This document shows positions 50,926 through 57,359 of a DNA stretch of 64,000 bases, piece by piece. Numbering within the stretch: the stretch's first letter is position 1; each line of letters begins with the position of its first letter. The stretch is from Escherichia coli (lineage in GTDB: Bacteria; Pseudomonadota; Gammaproteobacteria; Enterobacterales; Enterobacteriaceae). Under the pieces are notes generated by a model, which worked only from the letters and a program-made list of their open reading frames with translations, had not been told where the DNA came from and made no database searches. Where the stretch lies: assembly GCF_024298765.1 (NCBI RefSeq), contig NZ_CP101210.1. The stretch is one strand, 5' to 3'. The position numbers and the translations under genes are program-made.

Positions 50926-51994
50926 GAGTCATACTCTCCCTGTTACGAATGGAAAAAGCGGGTATTAATCCCTGATAACGCCCCAGACTGACCGTCACTG
51001 TTCCGGTCGCGGGCGCGGCAAAGGAGGCGCGAAGGATGCCGGTACGGCTAATCTGTACACGCTGTTTTCCCAGCCGGGCAGCAGGCAACAGGCTGACGGG
51101 CAGCGTCAGTTGCAGACGGGCCTGACAGCGCCAGCCCAGATAAACGCGCAGCAGCACCAGCAAATCGCTGTGCAGTTGCCCGCCGGGCAGCCAGCCACGC
51201 GCTTCTGCGGCATCTTCGGTATACAGTTTCAGCAGCAACTGGCTGTTGACGTCGGTACCGGTACGCCCCAGCAGCGTTCGCGTTTTCAGGCTGATGCGTG
51301 AATTTTTTGACAGACCCGCAGGGGCCGGGAGAATTACAGGCTGCGGATCATGAGGCACCACCGTCGCTTTCGTCAGCGGGGCAAGCAGTCCCACCAGTGC
51401 CGTAACGCCTTCCGCCGTGCGCGTCGGCAGGCGCATCACGCTGAGCAGGGCCAGAAAACGGGATACCGGCGTGGCGATATGGTTCTCGCTGCCGGGAATA
51501 CCCAGCCCGATGAGTCCCAGCAGACAACGGGAAATGTCATCCACGGCACCTGCTTCAAACGACGCCGGGTAGTTATATTTGCGCCAGATGCGGTAATACT
51601 GGGTGATAAAGCGGTGGTTAAAAATATCGAGAAACGCCATCACTGCGTCATGTCCGTCATGACGCTGGGTAATGTAGTCCAGATAGGCGGTTGGCAGCGG
51701 CGAATCCACGCCGTACAGGCCGAGAAAGGTGGTGCGCACCGTGGGCGGCGCGTCGGGATTGCCCACGTCACGTTCAACGTTCTTTAACTCGCTGACCGGA
51801 AAGCCCATTCCGGGATGGGGACGAAAGCGCACCGCATCGGCGGCGGGGCTGTCGGTACTGCCCAGCGGCGCGTTCTGCTGGCTCTGTTCCAGCAACTGGC
51901 AAAAACGGTAAAAATTGATCCGCGCAATATCCGGGGCCAGCCGGTCGGTCAGCCCGGTACGCGCTGGCTGTGATGCTCTGTCCATTGCAGGCAC
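50906..51994 (-). CDS. tssG: T6SS baseplate subunit TssG
   Basis: 362-aa ORF immediately downstream of and overlapping tssF; TssG-like N-terminal region (INFYRFCQLLEQ). Confidence 0.7.
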   Translation of the reverse strand: MPAMDRASQPARTGLTDRLAPDIARINFYRFCQLLEQSQQNAPLGSTDSPAADAVRFRPHPGMGFPVSELKNVERDVGNPDAPPTVRTTFLGLYGVDSPLPTAYLDYITQRHDGHDAVMAFLDIFNHRFITQYYRIWRKYNYPASFEAGAVDDISRCLLGLIGLGIPGSENHIATPVSRFLALLSVMRLPTRTAEGVTALVGLLAPLTKATVVPHDPQPVILPAPAGLSKNSRISLKTRTLLGRTGTDVNSQLLLKLYTEDAAEARGWLPGGQLHSDLLVLLRVYLGWRCQARLQLTLPVSLLPAARLGKQRVQISRTGILRASFAAPATGTVTVSLGRYQGLIPAFSIRNRESMTHVSYSF

Positions 51995-53709
51995 TTTCCT
52001 GTGGGTTGCAGAATTAAGGTCAGTTGAGTGAATAAGTGGATATCGGCATACAGTGCGAAAAAGCGGTGCAGCAGTTCACCAAACAGCGTGATATCACCTT
52101 CTCCGGCAAAGCCGTTACTGTCCAGCGTCACCTGAATATCCACGCCACGCAGCAGAAAGCCTCTTTCAAAACGCTGTATCAGGCTGTGCTGAACGTCGAC
52201 AATCGCCTCCAGACGACGGCGGTTCATCTCACTTTCGGTCCAGTCGTACAGTGCCAGCGTGCCGCGCAGAATTTCGGCGTTATCCATCATCGATAAAAAG
52301 TTAGAACCAAGGTGACTGAGCACCCGCCAGTGGAAGCGGTCACGCGCAGGGGGATAGCAGGGCTGCGTCGGAGCGCACAGGTTGCGCACCCGCAGGACGT
52401 TCTGTGAGGCATGAACTGGCGTATCGAGCAGCGTGCTCTGTAAAGCCTTACGGGGAAGCTGCCCGTTAGTACCGGTCAGGCTTAAAGAGAGCGTTTCATC
52501 CTCCAGCATCCGGTCAGTATCAAACGCATCGCCGCCCAGAATCAGCCAGGTGTCATGCAGGCCGGAAGGGCCGCGCTTTACCCGCGTGTGGTAATAGCGT
52601 TCCGGCGCATCGTGGCGCAGCATCCCGCCCCGGTGACGAAAGCTGGAGAAGGGGACATACGCCTGACTGCCGGTATGGCGCGAAGAAATAATGTTGTCGA
52701 CGGAATAAATCTCGGTATGCCCGTCCTGAATGCGCATCGGGCGCAGCAGAAATTCGTTTTCCAGTGGCGAAAGGTGTAACGGATCGGCTTCGAGCGGGAA
52801 CAGGTTGATGACCGGCACGCAGTGCAGACGGATATTATCGCTGTCAAACGGCAGGTCGTGAGGCCAGTTCTCGTTCAGCACCACGTCAATCTCAAAGCCG
52901 GTTATCCCCTCCGGCCATGCAACCTGCTCCAGCCCGTTCAGCGCCACGAACATAAACTTCTCGCGGAAGGTGAAATACTCCAGCAGCAACTGGTAACCGC
53001 TGAAGGCTGACTCACCTTTTGGCCAGAGCCTGTCATCATCCTCAAAGCCCATCGGGGAAAAGTGTGCGCCAAGCATCCGGCGATCCTGCCCCGGCAGACG
53101 CAGCCAGAACTGCTGCGTGCCAAGCGTTAAAGCCCGGTGCAACGCACAGGCTACCGGGCTGTCGGCATTGAGATAGAGCAGCAGGCGGGATAAATCGATC
53201 TGCGACCAGTCACCAACCAGCGGGCCGCACGCAAAGCGCAGACGGATAACCGAGCGTCCGTCCGGTTCATATTGCAATGACACGTCCGGCAACGCCAGCG
53301 GATGCAGCGTGATATCACGCGTGGCACTGTAGACGCAGCGGGTTCTGCGCTCGCCAACAGGGCGCGACAATACCTGAAAATCGCTCAGCGTTTCGCTCTG
53401 CTTCATCTGCCGGTGATCTGTCGACAGTTCAACCACGGAAAGTGACGGGATGGTTCGCAGGTAGTGGGGCCACAGCAGGCTGACCAGCCCTTCAGTCAGT
53501 TCCGGCAGATCGTCGTCCAGCTTTTCGCGCAGGCGGCCCATTAAAAAAGCGAAGCCTTCGAACAGGCGCTCCACATAGGGATCGCGTGCGCCGGGTTTAT
53601 CAAGATTGAGCATCGCGGCGCGGTCGGGGTAAGCCTGCGCAAATTCTTTCCCCGCTTCACGCAGGTAGCGCATTTCGGCTTCGTAGTAGCGTTGGGTTAG
53701 ATCGTCCAT
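51949..53709 (-). CDS. tssF: T6SS baseplate subunit TssF (start placed at internal MDDLTQ Met; track start is 53748)
   Basis: About 586 aa; N-terminus MDDLTQRYYEAEMRYLREAGKEFAQAYPDRAAML is TssF-like; GGAAG upstream of this ATG. Confidence 0.75.
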   Translation of the reverse strand: MDDLTQRYYEAEMRYLREAGKEFAQAYPDRAAMLNLDKPGARDPYVERLFEGFAFLMGRLREKLDDDLPELTEGLVSLLWPHYLRTIPSLSVVELSTDHRQMKQSETLSDFQVLSRPVGERRTRCVYSATRDITLHPLALPDVSLQYEPDGRSVIRLRFACGPLVGDWSQIDLSRLLLYLNADSPVACALHRALTLGTQQFWLRLPGQDRRMLGAHFSPMGFEDDDRLWPKGESAFSGYQLLLEYFTFREKFMFVALNGLEQVAWPEGITGFEIDVVLNENWPHDLPFDSDNIRLHCVPVINLFPLEADPLHLSPLENEFLLRPMRIQDGHTEIYSVDNIISSRHTGSQAYVPFSSFRHRGGMLRHDAPERYYHTRVKRGPSGLHDTWLILGGDAFDTDRMLEDETLSLSLTGTNGQLPRKALQSTLLDTPVHASQNVLRVRNLCAPTQPCYPPARDRFHWRVLSHLGSNFLSMMDNAEILRGTLALYDWTESEMNRRRLEAIVDVQHSLIQRFERGFLLRGVDIQVTLDSNGFAGEGDITLFGELLHRFFALYADIHLFTQLTLILQPTGKCLQWTEHHSQRVPG

Positions 53710-53918
53710 CGGAGGGATTATCTTCCTTTCATTGAAAGTGAATATCATGCAGGTGTAGAAGTAACATCATAGTTAAATTTATTCTATGTGAATATATTAT
53801 GGATAGTTGCTGACTTATTGATTTTAATAATGATGTATTCTTGTCTTTTCTGAACCAAATTAAATTTACCTTACATAATAGGCAATAATTAATAATTGTG
53901 AACGAATAACTTAAAACA

Positions 53919-54344
53919 TCACGGGCAAATTTCCTGACTGTCGATTATATATCTTATAACTCCGTATTTTCTGTCGTCTTTTGTTGAAATATCTCGTGAT
54001 AATCTAATTAAGTCATTCTTCCCAAATTTTTTTTCGCGCCCTGACAATGAAATGGTGAATGGATAATCCAATTCACCGCGGCTATCTTTATATATCATGA
54101 ATGCCCCCTCATATTTAAAACCATAATCAATATCTGCCGTGGGAAAATATACTAATACATCACTATCACCAACTGGCAAGTGTATATTATGCTGATAAAT
54201 CAGCGTAGAACCGGAAACATATCCCTGAATAAAGACATCGATATCTGAGGAGCATCTATTCTCAATCCTGACTATATTGGAATACTCTTTTTGTGAAGTA
54301 CACCCACTCAAAAAAAACAATAAAAAAACAATTATTCTAATCAT
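53919..54344 (-). CDS. Small lipoprotein, candidate cognate immunity protein for the upstream PAAR toxin
   Basis: 141-aa ORF with lipobox (FFLSGCTS); overlaps the toxin stop by 8 nt; AT-rich. Confidence 0.6.
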   Translation of the reverse strand: MIRIIVFLLFFLSGCTSQKEYSNIVRIENRCSSDIDVFIQGYVSGSTLIYQHNIHLPVGDSDVLVYFPTADIDYGFKYEGAFMIYKDSRGELDYPFTISLSGREKKFGKNDLIRLSRDISTKDDRKYGVIRYIIDSQEICP

Positions 54345-55749
54345 TAAAACTCACCCTGCTCAACCAGATCAATGCCTGAACATCTTCATCTGCCGCGACC
54401 AATCTCTTATATCTATCAGGTGCATAGCTATCTGCATATTTCATTATATCAATCTCTCCTGAAGATGGCATTGGAGTATTAGGGATGGTACTTTGACCCC
54501 GCGTGGATGTCCCCTTATGTGTCCATGATTCAGAACCATATTTATCCATAACTTTATGTCCCATCTCATGAGCACTATCCCATTTATATCTTTCATTACT
54601 ATATAGAAGAGCCTTTATTTCATCCTTGCTGTTATTATAATAGCCACCATAGTTATGGTATATTTTTTCAAACCCCAAAAGACTTACCGACGACTGCATA
54701 TCTGGATCTAACGATGATATCAAATCAAAAGTTCGCATAGATGGAGTAATATTTATCTCAGCCTTTACATTTACTTTAAAAACCCCAATCGCTGTAACGA
54801 TATTACCACCAATTCCCCCGCCGCGACTTCCATTTCGTGACCAGTAAAACTCCACGCCATTTTTAGTAAGACTAACTAAATCGCTATAAGGTATTGGCGA
54901 TAACTCAGGGTTACTGCCTTTTGTACCGCTATCCTTAACAGATAATCTCCATGTTATATCGACCACTTTATTATTTCTGTCAACTTTTACATCAACCCAC
55001 TCTTCTTCTTTCGCAGCATTTTTCAATGGATAATCAACTTTTATCATCATATCACCACATAAAGCAATCAGTCTTACGAGTAGTGATTTGCTTTTTATCT
55101 TAGTTGTATCCAGTATGCCTTGATTACTGTAACCATCCCATTGCCAGGCATGCTCTCCCTTATCACAATATTTACCGGTCTGCCGTTCACTATAAATCAC
55201 TTCATTACCATCAAGCACTTCCAGAGAAAGCGCTTCAGCCTCATCGCCTTTATTTGTGATAGTAAAATCTATTTTTTCTGTATTCTTCGTACTACCACCG
55301 CTTATCATTTCTTTATAATCAGGTATATTCAGTGGCGTCAGTATCTTATTACCTGATAATTTAATTCTGTAATCCAGTTTTACATCATCAGAGGATGAAT
55401 CAGAACCAGAAGTCAGATCCTTTTTCGCCGACTGCGCATGTTGTTCCGCTTCACTTCCCCCGTCATCCACCTCATAGGTATCATCCATCATCGACGCAAT
55501 AAACCGCGCCTTACACGGGCAACTGCTCTGGCTATCCAGCGTCCCCGCCATCAGCCTGCCGTGAATATCTGTTTCAGGAACGCCGCCCACAATAATAAAC
55601 ATTCCCGGATATCTGCCGCAGGTGACCCGGTCCATATCCCGTGCCTGCGGGATACCCATGATCGTATGGTCGTCCGCGCCTTCAATAATTTTGCCGCCGC
55701 AGGTAGTCTTATCGCCCCTGACCAGGAAGTAGCCTGTTCCCATTGCCAT
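54337..55749 (-). CDS. PAAR-like domain T6SS effector with C-terminal HExxH (zincin-type metallopeptidase-like) domain
   Basis: 470-aa ORF; N-terminal PAAR-like region (GTGYFLVRGDKTTCGGKII ... CPCKARFIAS); C-terminal AHEMGHKVMD motif; start ATG overlaps the tssA stop (TGATG). Confidence 0.65.
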   Translation of the reverse strand: MAMGTGYFLVRGDKTTCGGKIIEGADDHTIMGIPQARDMDRVTCGRYPGMFIIVGGVPETDIHGRLMAGTLDSQSSCPCKARFIASMMDDTYEVDDGGSEAEQHAQSAKKDLTSGSDSSSDDVKLDYRIKLSGNKILTPLNIPDYKEMISGGSTKNTEKIDFTITNKGDEAEALSLEVLDGNEVIYSERQTGKYCDKGEHAWQWDGYSNQGILDTTKIKSKSLLVRLIALCGDMMIKVDYPLKNAAKEEEWVDVKVDRNNKVVDITWRLSVKDSGTKGSNPELSPIPYSDLVSLTKNGVEFYWSRNGSRGGGIGGNIVTAIGVFKVNVKAEINITPSMRTFDLISSLDPDMQSSVSLLGFEKIYHNYGGYYNNSKDEIKALLYSNERYKWDSAHEMGHKVMDKYGSESWTHKGTSTRGQSTIPNTPMPSSGEIDIMKYADSYAPDRYKRLVAADEDVQALIWLSRVSFND

Positions 55750-57359
55750 CAGTCCTTATGTTGCGTATCACACAATACCGCTGCCCGCACCGGATTGATT
55801 GCCACCAGTGTACCCAGCAGGGCATCCATTTTTCGGTTCAGCAGGGCTTTATCCGCATAGCGGTGCGCCCGCAGACGCAGCAGTTTCAGCTGTCGGGCTT
55901 TTACTTCAAACAGCAGTTCTGGCTCCCACTGCGTCAGCGTTATTCCCTGTGCGGCTGTATCCAGTTCTTCCAGCAGCAGGAGCGCCATCTCGTTTTTACC
56001 GTACTGTTCCGCCACCCGCGCCATCAGCAGTCGCAATAGCAGGCGCTGTCGTGCCGTGGTGATGCCCGGACGGGTCTGTATCCAGCCCAGCGCCGCTTCC
56101 ACGCCCTGACTGTCTGCTATCTCCAGCGCTTCCGGCTCCAGCGCCAGTACGTCGTTTGTGGCGTCGTCTGTCGGTACAGCGGCTTTCCCCGCAAGCCATG
56201 CGCCGTCTTCCCGCATCATGACCTGCTGCGCTATCCAGTTGCGCGTCACCTCGTCGGCGAACGGCGTGCCGTCGTTCCATGCCAGATTTTCCAGCCCCGG
56301 CAGGCGCTCCAGCAGCAGCGCCAGGTCCTGACGGATAACCGCTGTCCATCTGTCCCACGGTGCGCCCGCCTTGGCCAGCGCCTGATGCAGATACCACTGG
56401 ATATCCAGCCAGAAATGGCTGACGCCGGAGCTGAACATCAGGTCGGCCTGCTCCAGCAGTTCCGTCCAGTTCTGCTGAGCATACAGCCGCTTAAGCTGGT
56501 TGCGTGATTCTGTGCGCGGCGGGGCCAGCCGGGTTTTTCCGTCCACATCCGGCGGCAGTTCATGCACCGTGTCCCAGCGCAGGGTTTTCATCAGCCGGTG
56601 TGCTGAAAGCCAGCCCTGCGGCTGTTCGTTCAGATAACGGGCCAGCACTTTCGCCTGGTCGAGCAGGTCGCGCCCGGAAGTGATGGTCTGTACCTGTGGC
56701 GCATCCACCGGGGAAGACGGTGCCGGAACGCCGCTGCTGTTCTGCGGCACCACCGCGTTCATCCCACCCGACTGCGCCAGACGTGATTCCAGCGCGTTAA
56801 TCAGCGGCATCAGGGAGGGGGAATGCTGGTCTTCGGGCCATGCAGTGAAGGAAACCGTCAGTTGATTAAGAGCGGCAACAATGTTCGCAAAATCCTCTTT
56901 TGCCACTTCCGGGTAGCGGGCAAGGCTGTCGAGCATCTTTTCCCCTGCCAGCCACTCCAGCGCCATTTTTCGGCTTGCCGGGCGCGAGGGCAGCAGTTGC
57001 GCACCGAAGCGTTCCACCAGTCCGGCTAACAGCGCCAGCCCCTCAGCCAGTCCGCGTTCGCCATCGCGGTGCAGTCGCGCCCAGATATAGTAAGTGGCGA
57101 TGCGCACGTCTTTTGCCTGCGTCAGCAGCAGGGATTCGGCAAGCTGGCAGATAAGGTCCGTATCCGCGCCGGAAAGTTTGTTCATCTCGTCGCGGATACG
57201 CAGGAAATCGTCGTGGTAGCCGGGGTCTTCCCCGACCGGCGTATCTGCCGTCACCGGCAGCAGCCATGTCTGCCACAGCGCCGCCTGTGTTCGCGCCGAG
57301 TCCAGTGCGTCCCGGTCGGCAAAACAGCTACGGGTCAGCTTTTGCAACAGTTCACTCAT
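55749..57359 (-). CDS. tssA: T6SS protein TssA (ImpA family); start placed at MSELLQKL just after the tssM stop
   Basis: About 536-aa ORF with ImpA_N-type N-terminal region (PVGEDPGYHDDFLRIRDEMNKL); follows tssM. Confidence 0.7.
   Translation of the reverse strand: MSELLQKLTRSCFADRDALDSARTQAALWQTWLLPVTADTPVGEDPGYHDDFLRIRDEMNKLSGADTDLICQLAESLLLTQAKDVRIATYYIWARLHRDGERGLAEGLALLAGLVERFGAQLLPSRPASRKMALEWLAGEKMLDSLARYPEVAKEDFANIVAALNQLTVSFTAWPEDQHSPSLMPLINALESRLAQSGGMNAVVPQNSSGVPAPSSPVDAPQVQTITSGRDLLDQAKVLARYLNEQPQGWLSAHRLMKTLRWDTVHELPPDVDGKTRLAPPRTESRNQLKRLYAQQNWTELLEQADLMFSSGVSHFWLDIQWYLHQALAKAGAPWDRWTAVIRQDLALLLERLPGLENLAWNDGTPFADEVTRNWIAQQVMMREDGAWLAGKAAVPTDDATNDVLALEPEALEIADSQGVEAALGWIQTRPGITTARQRLLLRLLMARVAEQYGKNEMALLLLEELDTAAQGITLTQWEPELLFEVKARQLKLLRLRAHRYADKALLNRKMDALLGTLVAINPVRAAVLCDTQHKD

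Follow-up and report, generated by a model that had tools for sequence, protein, structure and literature searches.

A PAAR-borne metzincin-like domain and an overlapping lipoprotein gene in the Escherichia coli T6SS-1 operon: a likely metallopeptidase effector and its immunity protein

Two genes placed between tssA and tssF in the core operon of a type VI secretion system (T6SS) of Escherichia coli raise the question of whether they encode parts of the secretion machine, or a toxin that it delivers together with the protein that protects the producer. They lie on the minus strand of the window analysed here, a 64,000-nt stretch of E. coli DNA (contig NZ_CP101210.1), and encode a 470-amino-acid (aa) PAAR protein (54337..55749) and a 141-aa lipoprotein (53919..54344). 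We consider it likely that this PAAR protein represents a specialised ("evolved") effector of T6SS-1 carrying a periplasm-acting zinc endopeptidase, and that the lipoprotein is its immunity protein.

Both open reading frames (ORFs) were recovered as an earlier, sequence-only reading of this DNA had drawn them, and the junctions that it had described were confirmed. The stop codon of tssA (55749..57386, minus strand; TIGR03362, E 2.3e-141) shares the sequence TGATG with the first ATG of the PAAR gene, a 1-nt overlap at position 55749. A second ATG, 6 nt downstream (55743), is the start used in RefSeq and in most homologues and yields a product of 468 aa; whichever ATG is used, the gene is tightly coupled to tssA. 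The PAAR-toxin and lipoprotein ORFs in turn overlap by 8 nt (ATGATTAG). The 470-residue product was divided into a PAAR spike-tip module (residues ~1-95; 55465..55749), a low-complexity linker rich in acidic residues and Ser (~96-123; 55381..55464), a predicted immunoglobulin (Ig)-like beta-sandwich domain (~124-246; 55012..55380), and a predicted zincin/metzincin-like catalytic domain (~247-470; 54340..55011), all on the minus strand.

The proposal of a PAAR N-terminus was borne out by the Pfam PAAR_motif (PF05488), which matched residues 12-68 (E 9.5e-9); a PDB single-sequence search with residues 3-100 gave no match. When the protein was aligned with eight others, residues 1-95 were near-identical across the nine enterobacterial PAAR proteins, with C17, H28, C44, C77 and C79 invariant, including PAAR modules that bear other toxins at this same E. 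coli locus. Past the acidic linker, the C-termini of the aligned proteins are unrelated and include Ntox44, S-type pyocin/colicin E3, DUF2235 (Tle1-like) and others. Since the alignment is near-identical and then diverges, the PAAR module is the constant part, and everything past residue ~100 is cargo.

Base composition breaks at the same place. The GC content is ~60% in tssA and tssF versus 32-39% from ~55400 to ~53750. The claim that both genes are AT-rich relative to their neighbours was therefore correct for the linker, the toxin and the lipoprotein, and not for the first ~300-350 nt of the PAAR-toxin gene, which encode the PAAR module and have a flank-like GC content of ~55%. Because the drop starts inside the gene, past this module, the AT-rich block comprises the linker, the toxin, the lipoprotein and a 170-nt AT-rich spacer (53749..53918) that ends the cassette before the tssF start, and not the whole gene. 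The breakpoint in the alignment agrees with the breakpoint in GC content, and the linker, where the C-termini diverge and the GC content falls, is the recombination junction. Promoter and terminator scans of the AT-rich cassette returned no more matches than scans of shuffled sequence. We also observed that another E. coli protein (P0004, 476 aa) is virtually identical through the PAAR module, the linker and the Ig-like domain, and 44% identical in the catalytic domain; this mosaicism within the gene indicates a second recombination point between the Ig-like and peptidase domains.

This modular exchange bears on the idea that the protein is an accessory of the machine rather than a toxin, that is, a spike-borne peptidase that opens the cell wall for the T6SS (compare TagX and MltE), with the lipoprotein as a regulator or inhibitor in the producer. 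The location of the gene in the middle of the core operon would agree with such a role, as would the peptidoglycan-binding domains found in some relatives. A study of the T6SS of sequence type 131 (ST131) also counted the PAAR protein as structural, and sought effectors only downstream of vgrG (PMC10711316). However, the C-terminal block is dispensable and exchangeable, given that the same PAAR module bears nuclease, lipase or unrelated C-termini in other strains; its AT-rich composition marks it as foreign cargo, and toxin-lipoprotein pairs also occur as orphans far from T6SS genes. We regard an accessory role as unlikely.

The C-terminal half of the protein carries AHEMGHKVMD at residues 393-402, which the sequence-only reading had taken as a zincin-type signature, and structure prediction supports that assignment. 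The AlphaFold2 model of residues 124-470, built from a 23-sequence alignment, reached a predicted local distance difference test (pLDDT) score of 92.1 and a predicted template modelling (pTM) score of 0.91. It consists of a beta-sandwich (model residues 1-123), where Pfam detected a weak FlgD_ig match (residues 169-211), followed by an alpha/beta domain with the HExxH motif on a long helix, and this predicted structure has the fold of a zincin catalytic domain. The best structural matches include the metzincins ADAMs, fragilysin/BFT, CpaA and EcxA. The match scores are modest but consistent, and the predicted fold is clearly zincin-like, with metzincins closest. Metzincins (adamalysins/ADAMs, ulilysin, mirolysin, archaemetzincin, matrix metalloproteinases and astacins) likewise combine an N-terminal part of mixed beta-sheet and helix with a long HExxH helix.

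Residues A393, H394, E395, G397, S408, H411, K412, S415, Q419, E432, D434, M436, Y438, D456 and W462 are invariant in 27 diverse relatives, together with several Trp, Gly and Arg residues of the sheet. H398 is nearly invariant in this set, where one relative reads HEIGY, and invariant in trimmed alignments. The invariant or nearly invariant motifs of the family are thus AHExGH, S..HK..S, Q, GE.D.M.Y and D..W. The HEMGH motif (H394, E395, H398; 54556..54570), which is conserved and lies on the long helix of the model, is the predicted zinc-binding and catalytic motif. The extended metzincin motif HExxHxxGxxH/D is absent (the window reads HEMGHKVMDKYGSESWTHKG); the family consensus is HExGHxxLxxYG(x3-9)SWxHKG, and the next invariant His stands 13-18 residues past HExxH. 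To judge from these invariant columns, H411, within the pair H411-K412 (54514..54519), is probably the third zinc ligand. The segment GEIDIMKY (54436..54459), in which E432, D434, M436 and Y438 are invariant, could supply a Met-turn or else an acidic ligand; its Met-x-Tyr recalls the Met-turn and the Tyr that astacins and serralysins have.

The window allele lacks ~5 residues (consensus xSSPDY) in the loop that joins the HExxH helix to HKG (~54520-54535; residues 405-408, GSES), which are present in nearly all relatives, including the ST131 allele. A shortened loop is what one might find if this allele encoded a domain that had lost catalysis or was decaying, and that persisted only as a passenger or as a remnant maintained by its immunity gene, and the insertion sequences that interrupt the gene in some strains and the replacement of HExGH by HEIGY in one relative could be read in the same way. 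We hold such decay to be very unlikely, because all the invariant residues of the family are intact in the window allele, the ORF is full-length with an intact immunity gene, and the identical sequence has been kept in at least 75 complete genomes.

The sequence-only reading had left the C-terminal domain outside the named toxin families, and our profile searches of Pfam, NCBIfam and PDB sequences, which yielded no significant match, agree with this. Pfam gave no significant match over the C-terminal 350 residues of the protein, and none of any kind over the last 260. Among 22 catalytic domains of the family, Pfam returned nothing significant, with sub-threshold matches to M10 and M78 only (E ≥ 0.027, Peptidase_M10 being the best at 0.027); the Pfam families without a significant match comprised Tox-MPTase2-5, Peptidase_M91/HopH1, ATLF, eCIS_core, M10, M12, M23 and others. 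NCBIfam, PADLOC and PHROGs gave no significant match for either the toxin or the lipoprotein. PDB sequences, searched both with single sequences and with profiles, yielded nothing except an alignment between the HExxH helix and CapP at the level of chance (E 2.2).

The family is nevertheless large. A word-indexed search retrieved 217 proteins at E ≤ 1e-3, and an exhaustive profile search retrieved 567 clusters (50% identity) at E ≤ 1e-3, 245 of them at E ≤ 1e-30; homologues that reach E 1e-271 and the conservation of HExxH throughout the family exclude a chance observation. Members were found in Proteobacteria, Bacteroidota and one actinomycete. A Pfam scan of 30 long relatives revealed fusions to DUF4280 (six proteins; a PAAR-like domain), PAAR (three), Hcp (TssD; two), eCIS_core (one), PG_binding_1 (one) and an OmpA-like domain (one). 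Such fusions are the pattern of a polymorphic toxin domain that contractile injection systems employ, and the fusions to peptidoglycan-binding domains give a weak hint of action on the cell wall.

Several relatives have other contexts. In Yinghuangia soli, an actinomycete, the Ig-like and peptidase module with intact motifs forms the C-terminus of a 1646-aa protein with an N-terminal HHH_3 (ComEA-like) domain (L050, 2053-6993), which argues for a target that can be reached from outside the cytoplasm; the next gene (7150-8301) encodes a 383-aa lipoprotein whose repeats look beta-propeller-like by eye. On Bacteroidota metagenome contigs (L004/L005, 6001-7478), a 374-aa relative that lacks a recognisable delivery domain is paired with a 118-aa lipoprotein and adjoins an IS1595 transposase, far from T6SS genes; this toxin occurs in 393 blocks of the contig collection index, which makes it a very common orphan pair. 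The relatives in Limnobaculum parvum (L006, 5001-6104) and at two further loci (L020 and, from Budvicia aquatica, L025) are ~367-370 aa long, have neither PAAR nor another delivery domain, and are not followed by a small ORF. These Budviciaceae relatives sit among housekeeping genes, and one of them (P0042) is the protein that reads HEIGY. They could be copies that have been orphaned or are in decay, or could serve another function.

The 141-aa partner begins with a signal peptide and a lipobox, LSGC, with the lipidation site at Cys15 (MIRIIVFLLFFLSGC; 54300-54344), and matches the PROSITE PS51257-type pattern [LVI][ASTVI][GAS]C. According to the Lol rule of E. coli, the residue at position +2 bears on lipoprotein sorting, and the Thr found there suggests sorting to the outer membrane. 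A conserved Cys pair is formed by ENRC near the N-terminus and ICP at the C-terminal end. A direct word-indexed search with this protein found relatives in E. coli and Salmonella only, and its pairwise match to a Pseudomonas lipoprotein (E 8e-9) is weak by itself because the alignment includes the signal peptide. When signal peptides were removed, phmmer still matched it to the partner from Enterobacteriaceae RIT691 (5e-10) and to those of two Pseudomonas species (2e-5 and 1e-4). A jackhmmer iteration started from the E. coli lipoprotein recovered all 17 proteobacterial partners, including those of Pseudomonas and Azoarcus; NxC near the N-terminus is present in all 17, and a C-terminal CP in nearly all. 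The Bacteroidota partners belong to a different lipoprotein family.

The association itself was surveyed at 61 loci of toxin relatives from species-representative genomes, along with Pseudomonas and Bacteroidota metagenome loci and the window, which gave 63 evaluable loci. The sample included Pseudomonas, Stutzerimonas, Limnobaculum, Budvicia, Kangiella, Azoarcus, Lamprocystis, Acinetobacter, Psychrobacter and Limnohabitans, many Flavobacteriia and Sphingobacteriia, and one actinomycete. At 54 of the 63 loci, an ORF of 80-260 aa begins within -60 to +120 nt of the toxin stop; most of these ORFs have 107-150 aa, and the overlap is typically 4 or 8 nt. A PROSITE-type lipobox was found in 37 of these 54 ORFs, and many of the others have a near-lipobox or a signal peptidase I signal peptide; two of the 54 (L055 and L060) are 3' parts of frameshifted toxin genes. 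The effector/immunity layout that had been suggested for the window thus recurs in distant taxa, and conservation of the lipoprotein family extends from E. coli as far as Pseudomonas and Azoarcus. The P. fluorescens homologue, also a PAAR fusion, is located between tssE and tssF; it is followed by an 8-nt-overlapping lipoprotein gene, a tandem paralogue of this gene and an unrelated 125-aa membrane-like ORF, and then by tssF. This arrangement of tandem partner genes (L002, 6403-7190) looks like an immunity array. Between ST131 and the window, the toxins are 85% identical (the first 240 residues almost identical) and the lipoproteins 65%; from one E. coli allele to another, the lipoprotein thus changes faster than the toxin, as expected of an effector-immunity pair that co-diversifies. 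The tight linkage, the export signals, the paralogue arrays and the faster divergence of the partner agree with an effector that acts in the periplasm and is matched by an immunity lipoprotein, which is probably what the 141-aa protein is.

The export of the partners is also pertinent to the idea that the zincin scaffold catalyses a reaction other than peptide hydrolysis, as in the nuclease YbeY, or that the toxin acts in the cytoplasm. Because the linked partners are exported lipoproteins with a conserved Cys pair, neutralisation is expected to occur outside the cytoplasm. YbeY, moreover, lacks the catalytic Glu of HExxH, which is invariant in the present family, and we judge both variants to be extremely improbable.

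The cassette is widespread in E. coli. The 2.8-kb region that includes the ends of tssA and tssF was matched in 1289 of 5426 complete genomes, and the toxin-immunity cassette, at the sensitivity of megablast, in 987 (~18%), of which 159 reached ≥95% identity; the 2.8-kb stretch is 100% identical in many complete genomes. Carriers include ST131 and avian-pathogenic strains, and the exact protein of the window occurs in avian-pathogenic and septicaemic E. coli. RefSeq labels the toxin as "PAAR domain-containing protein" (WP_001318018.1) and the lipoprotein as "hypothetical protein" (WP_000619309.1), and the names under which the protein collection lists its sources are no more informative. In strain E5 (NZ_CP104521.1, 3574641-3578641), the IS5-like element ISKpn26 splits the PAAR-toxin gene, which is annotated as two PAAR coding sequences; this is a natural inactivation in at least one strain. 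Strain 104 carries an identical cassette and a tssH (clpV) gene (L068, 28295-30920) annotated as frameshifted, so its T6SS-1 may be non-functional although the effector-immunity pair is intact.

The occurrence of the exact protein in these pathogens could be taken to mean that the protease is directed at the host, as the metzincin fragilysin or ADAM-like sheddases are, and contributes to the virulence of avian-pathogenic and extraintestinal pathogenic E. coli, in which case the lipoprotein would do something else; the best structural matches of the model do include metzincins that act on the host (ADAMs, fragilysin/BFT, CpaA, EcxA). Against this, a tightly linked exported lipoprotein accompanies the toxin in enterobacteria, Pseudomonas, Azoarcus and Bacteroidota, among which free-living organisms are numerous; this is a signature of self-protection against an antibacterial toxin that acts in the periplasm, and the slot is shared with antibacterial toxins such as pyocin/colicin-type nucleases and Tle1-like lipases. 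A host-directed function therefore seems quite unlikely. Taken together, the explanations other than an antibacterial effector are disfavoured mainly because the exported partner is conserved, the domain is interchangeable with known antibacterial toxins, and its invariant residues are intact.

In the mechanism that we propose for this antibacterial effector, the PAAR module would cap the VgrG spike, and firing of the T6SS would carry the attached linker, Ig-like sandwich and metzincin-like zinc endopeptidase into the periplasm of a neighbouring Gram-negative cell. There, the peptidase would use HExxH, probably with H411 as the third ligand and with the metal lying above the GEIDxMKY segment, to cleave a peptide bond in a component of the cell envelope (a peptidoglycan peptide, or a periplasmic or outer-membrane protein), and the cell would be killed or arrested. 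The 141-aa lipoprotein would be exported and lipid-anchored facing the periplasm, where it would bind and block the peptidase and so protect the producer and its kin. The block of linker, toxin and immunity gene would move as an AT-rich, horizontally exchanged cassette that recombines just past the PAAR module.

As for the substrate, peptidoglycan peptides and envelope proteins are the candidates, and metzincin-like folds, as seen in the model, would favour protein or peptide substrates. A more specific and tentative possibility is that the family forms a metzincin-like clade not recognised before, in which the third ligand is non-canonical (HExxH...HK) and a Met-x-Tyr turn is present, and whose substrate is a specific conserved envelope protein and not peptidoglycan, candidates being an outer-membrane lipoprotein or a tether of the OmpA/Lpp type. 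If so, no earlier T6SS protease effector would have had its periplasmic protein target defined, and this one would also be the main PAAR-borne weapon of E. coli T6SS-1, ST131 included.

Four points weigh against the reading of the pair as a periplasmic peptidase and its immunity protein. The support for it is purely computational, and from this we infer zinc binding, catalysis, periplasmic action, toxicity and neutralisation. No feature points to a particular substrate, fusions to peptidoglycan-binding domains having been seen as single cases among the 30 proteins. The window allele, with its loop 5 residues shorter, could have altered or weakened activity. Lastly, since the relatives of Limnobaculum and Budvicia have neither PAAR nor a downstream ORF, not every member of the family belongs to a classical effector-immunity pair.

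The surrounding operon of T6SS-1 is complete, and its order on the minus strand is tssM-tssA-PAAR gene-lipoprotein gene-tssF-tssG-tssJ-tssE. It adjoins recBCD-argA-amiC on the E. coli chromosome. TssA, TssF (51949..53748, minus strand; TIGR03359, E 3.4e-173), TssG, TssJ and TssE reach the NCBIfam cut-offs, and TssM (57352-60873, minus strand) gives a match below the curated threshold. A likely second effector region lies downstream of a vgrG fragment (63201-63992), with two minus-strand ORFs. The first (62515-63168; 217 aa) is annotated in RefSeq as a "peptidoglycan recognition protein family protein" (amidase-like), and the second (60735-61949) encodes a 404-aa hypothetical protein; neither matched NCBIfam, and the GC content is lower, ~50%, around 61200-62000.

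Specialised PAAR effectors with immunity partners and T6SS zincin toxins (VgrG2b, Rhs-MPTase4) are already known, so the system follows a familiar logic. The novelty lies in the toxin family, which has neither a Pfam or NCBIfam model nor a solved relative, and yet comprises 567 clusters carried by PAAR, DUF4280, Hcp and eCIS modules. Full-text searches, accession numbers included, found no published characterisation of it, in line with the suggestion that the toxin is uncharacterised; a large catalogue, for example that of Geller et al. 2024 (PMC11148199), may contain it as a cluster without annotation. Defining the substrate would explain a large share of the killing by E. coli T6SS-1 and could reveal a new vulnerable target in the envelope, and the high-confidence model and clear motif make the family ready for bench work.

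Some described proteins were considered as members of the same family and rejected. SARI_02727, of Salmonella pathogenicity island 20, is a 189-aa VgrG2b-like protein (PMC12992299), and the gluzincin of Enterobacter VgrG2 represents another family (PMC10763514). The PAAR protein of enteroaggregative E. coli known from cryo-electron microscopy is encoded elsewhere in the cluster, downstream of tli1. In the parts covered of a Salmonella effector catalogue (PMC12994826), all five "Metallopeptidase" rows are non-fused cargo, the tables do not list the six accessions of Salmonella homologues, and no STox entry mapped to the family.

The closest functional parallels come from P. aeruginosa, where the C-terminal metallopeptidase of VgrG2b is paired with the immunity protein PA0261 (Wood et al. 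2019, PMC6899460), and from S. arizonae, with the VgrG2b-related pair SARI_02727/SARI_02726 (PMC12992299). These are likewise T6SS-borne HExxH zinc-metallopeptidase toxins that act in the periplasm, and an exported immunity protein encoded next to them neutralises them, and the substrate is undefined in both. The window domain did not show enough similarity in sequence or fold to the C-terminal domain of VgrG2b (PDB 6H56) to be grouped with it. The PAAR-Ntox44, PAAR-S-type pyocin/colicin E3 and PAAR-DUF2235 proteins of enterobacterial T6SS-1 share with the window protein the tssA-tssF slot, the near-identical PAAR module, the linker junction and the logic of the cassette. They are nucleases or lipases, whereas the window protein is a predicted periplasmic peptidase with a lipoprotein as its immunity protein, and the compartment of action would also differ. 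Zhang et al. 2012 listed Tox-MPTase1-5, HopH1, ALF and PVC metallopeptidases (PMC3482391); Tox-MPTase1, which was not found in Pfam, is set apart by its description, with RHS repeats and delivery by type II or type VII secretion systems or TcdB and not by a T6SS PAAR protein (PMC3482391). The Rhs toxins of E. coli with Tox-MPTase4 or Peptidase_M91 C-termini are also zincin-type, T6SS-delivered polymorphic toxins followed by an immunity gene. Unlike the Rhs/Tox-MPTase toxins, the toxin domain of the window is fused directly to a short PAAR module without Rhs repeats, and belongs to a much larger family that reaches Bacteroidota and an actinomycete.

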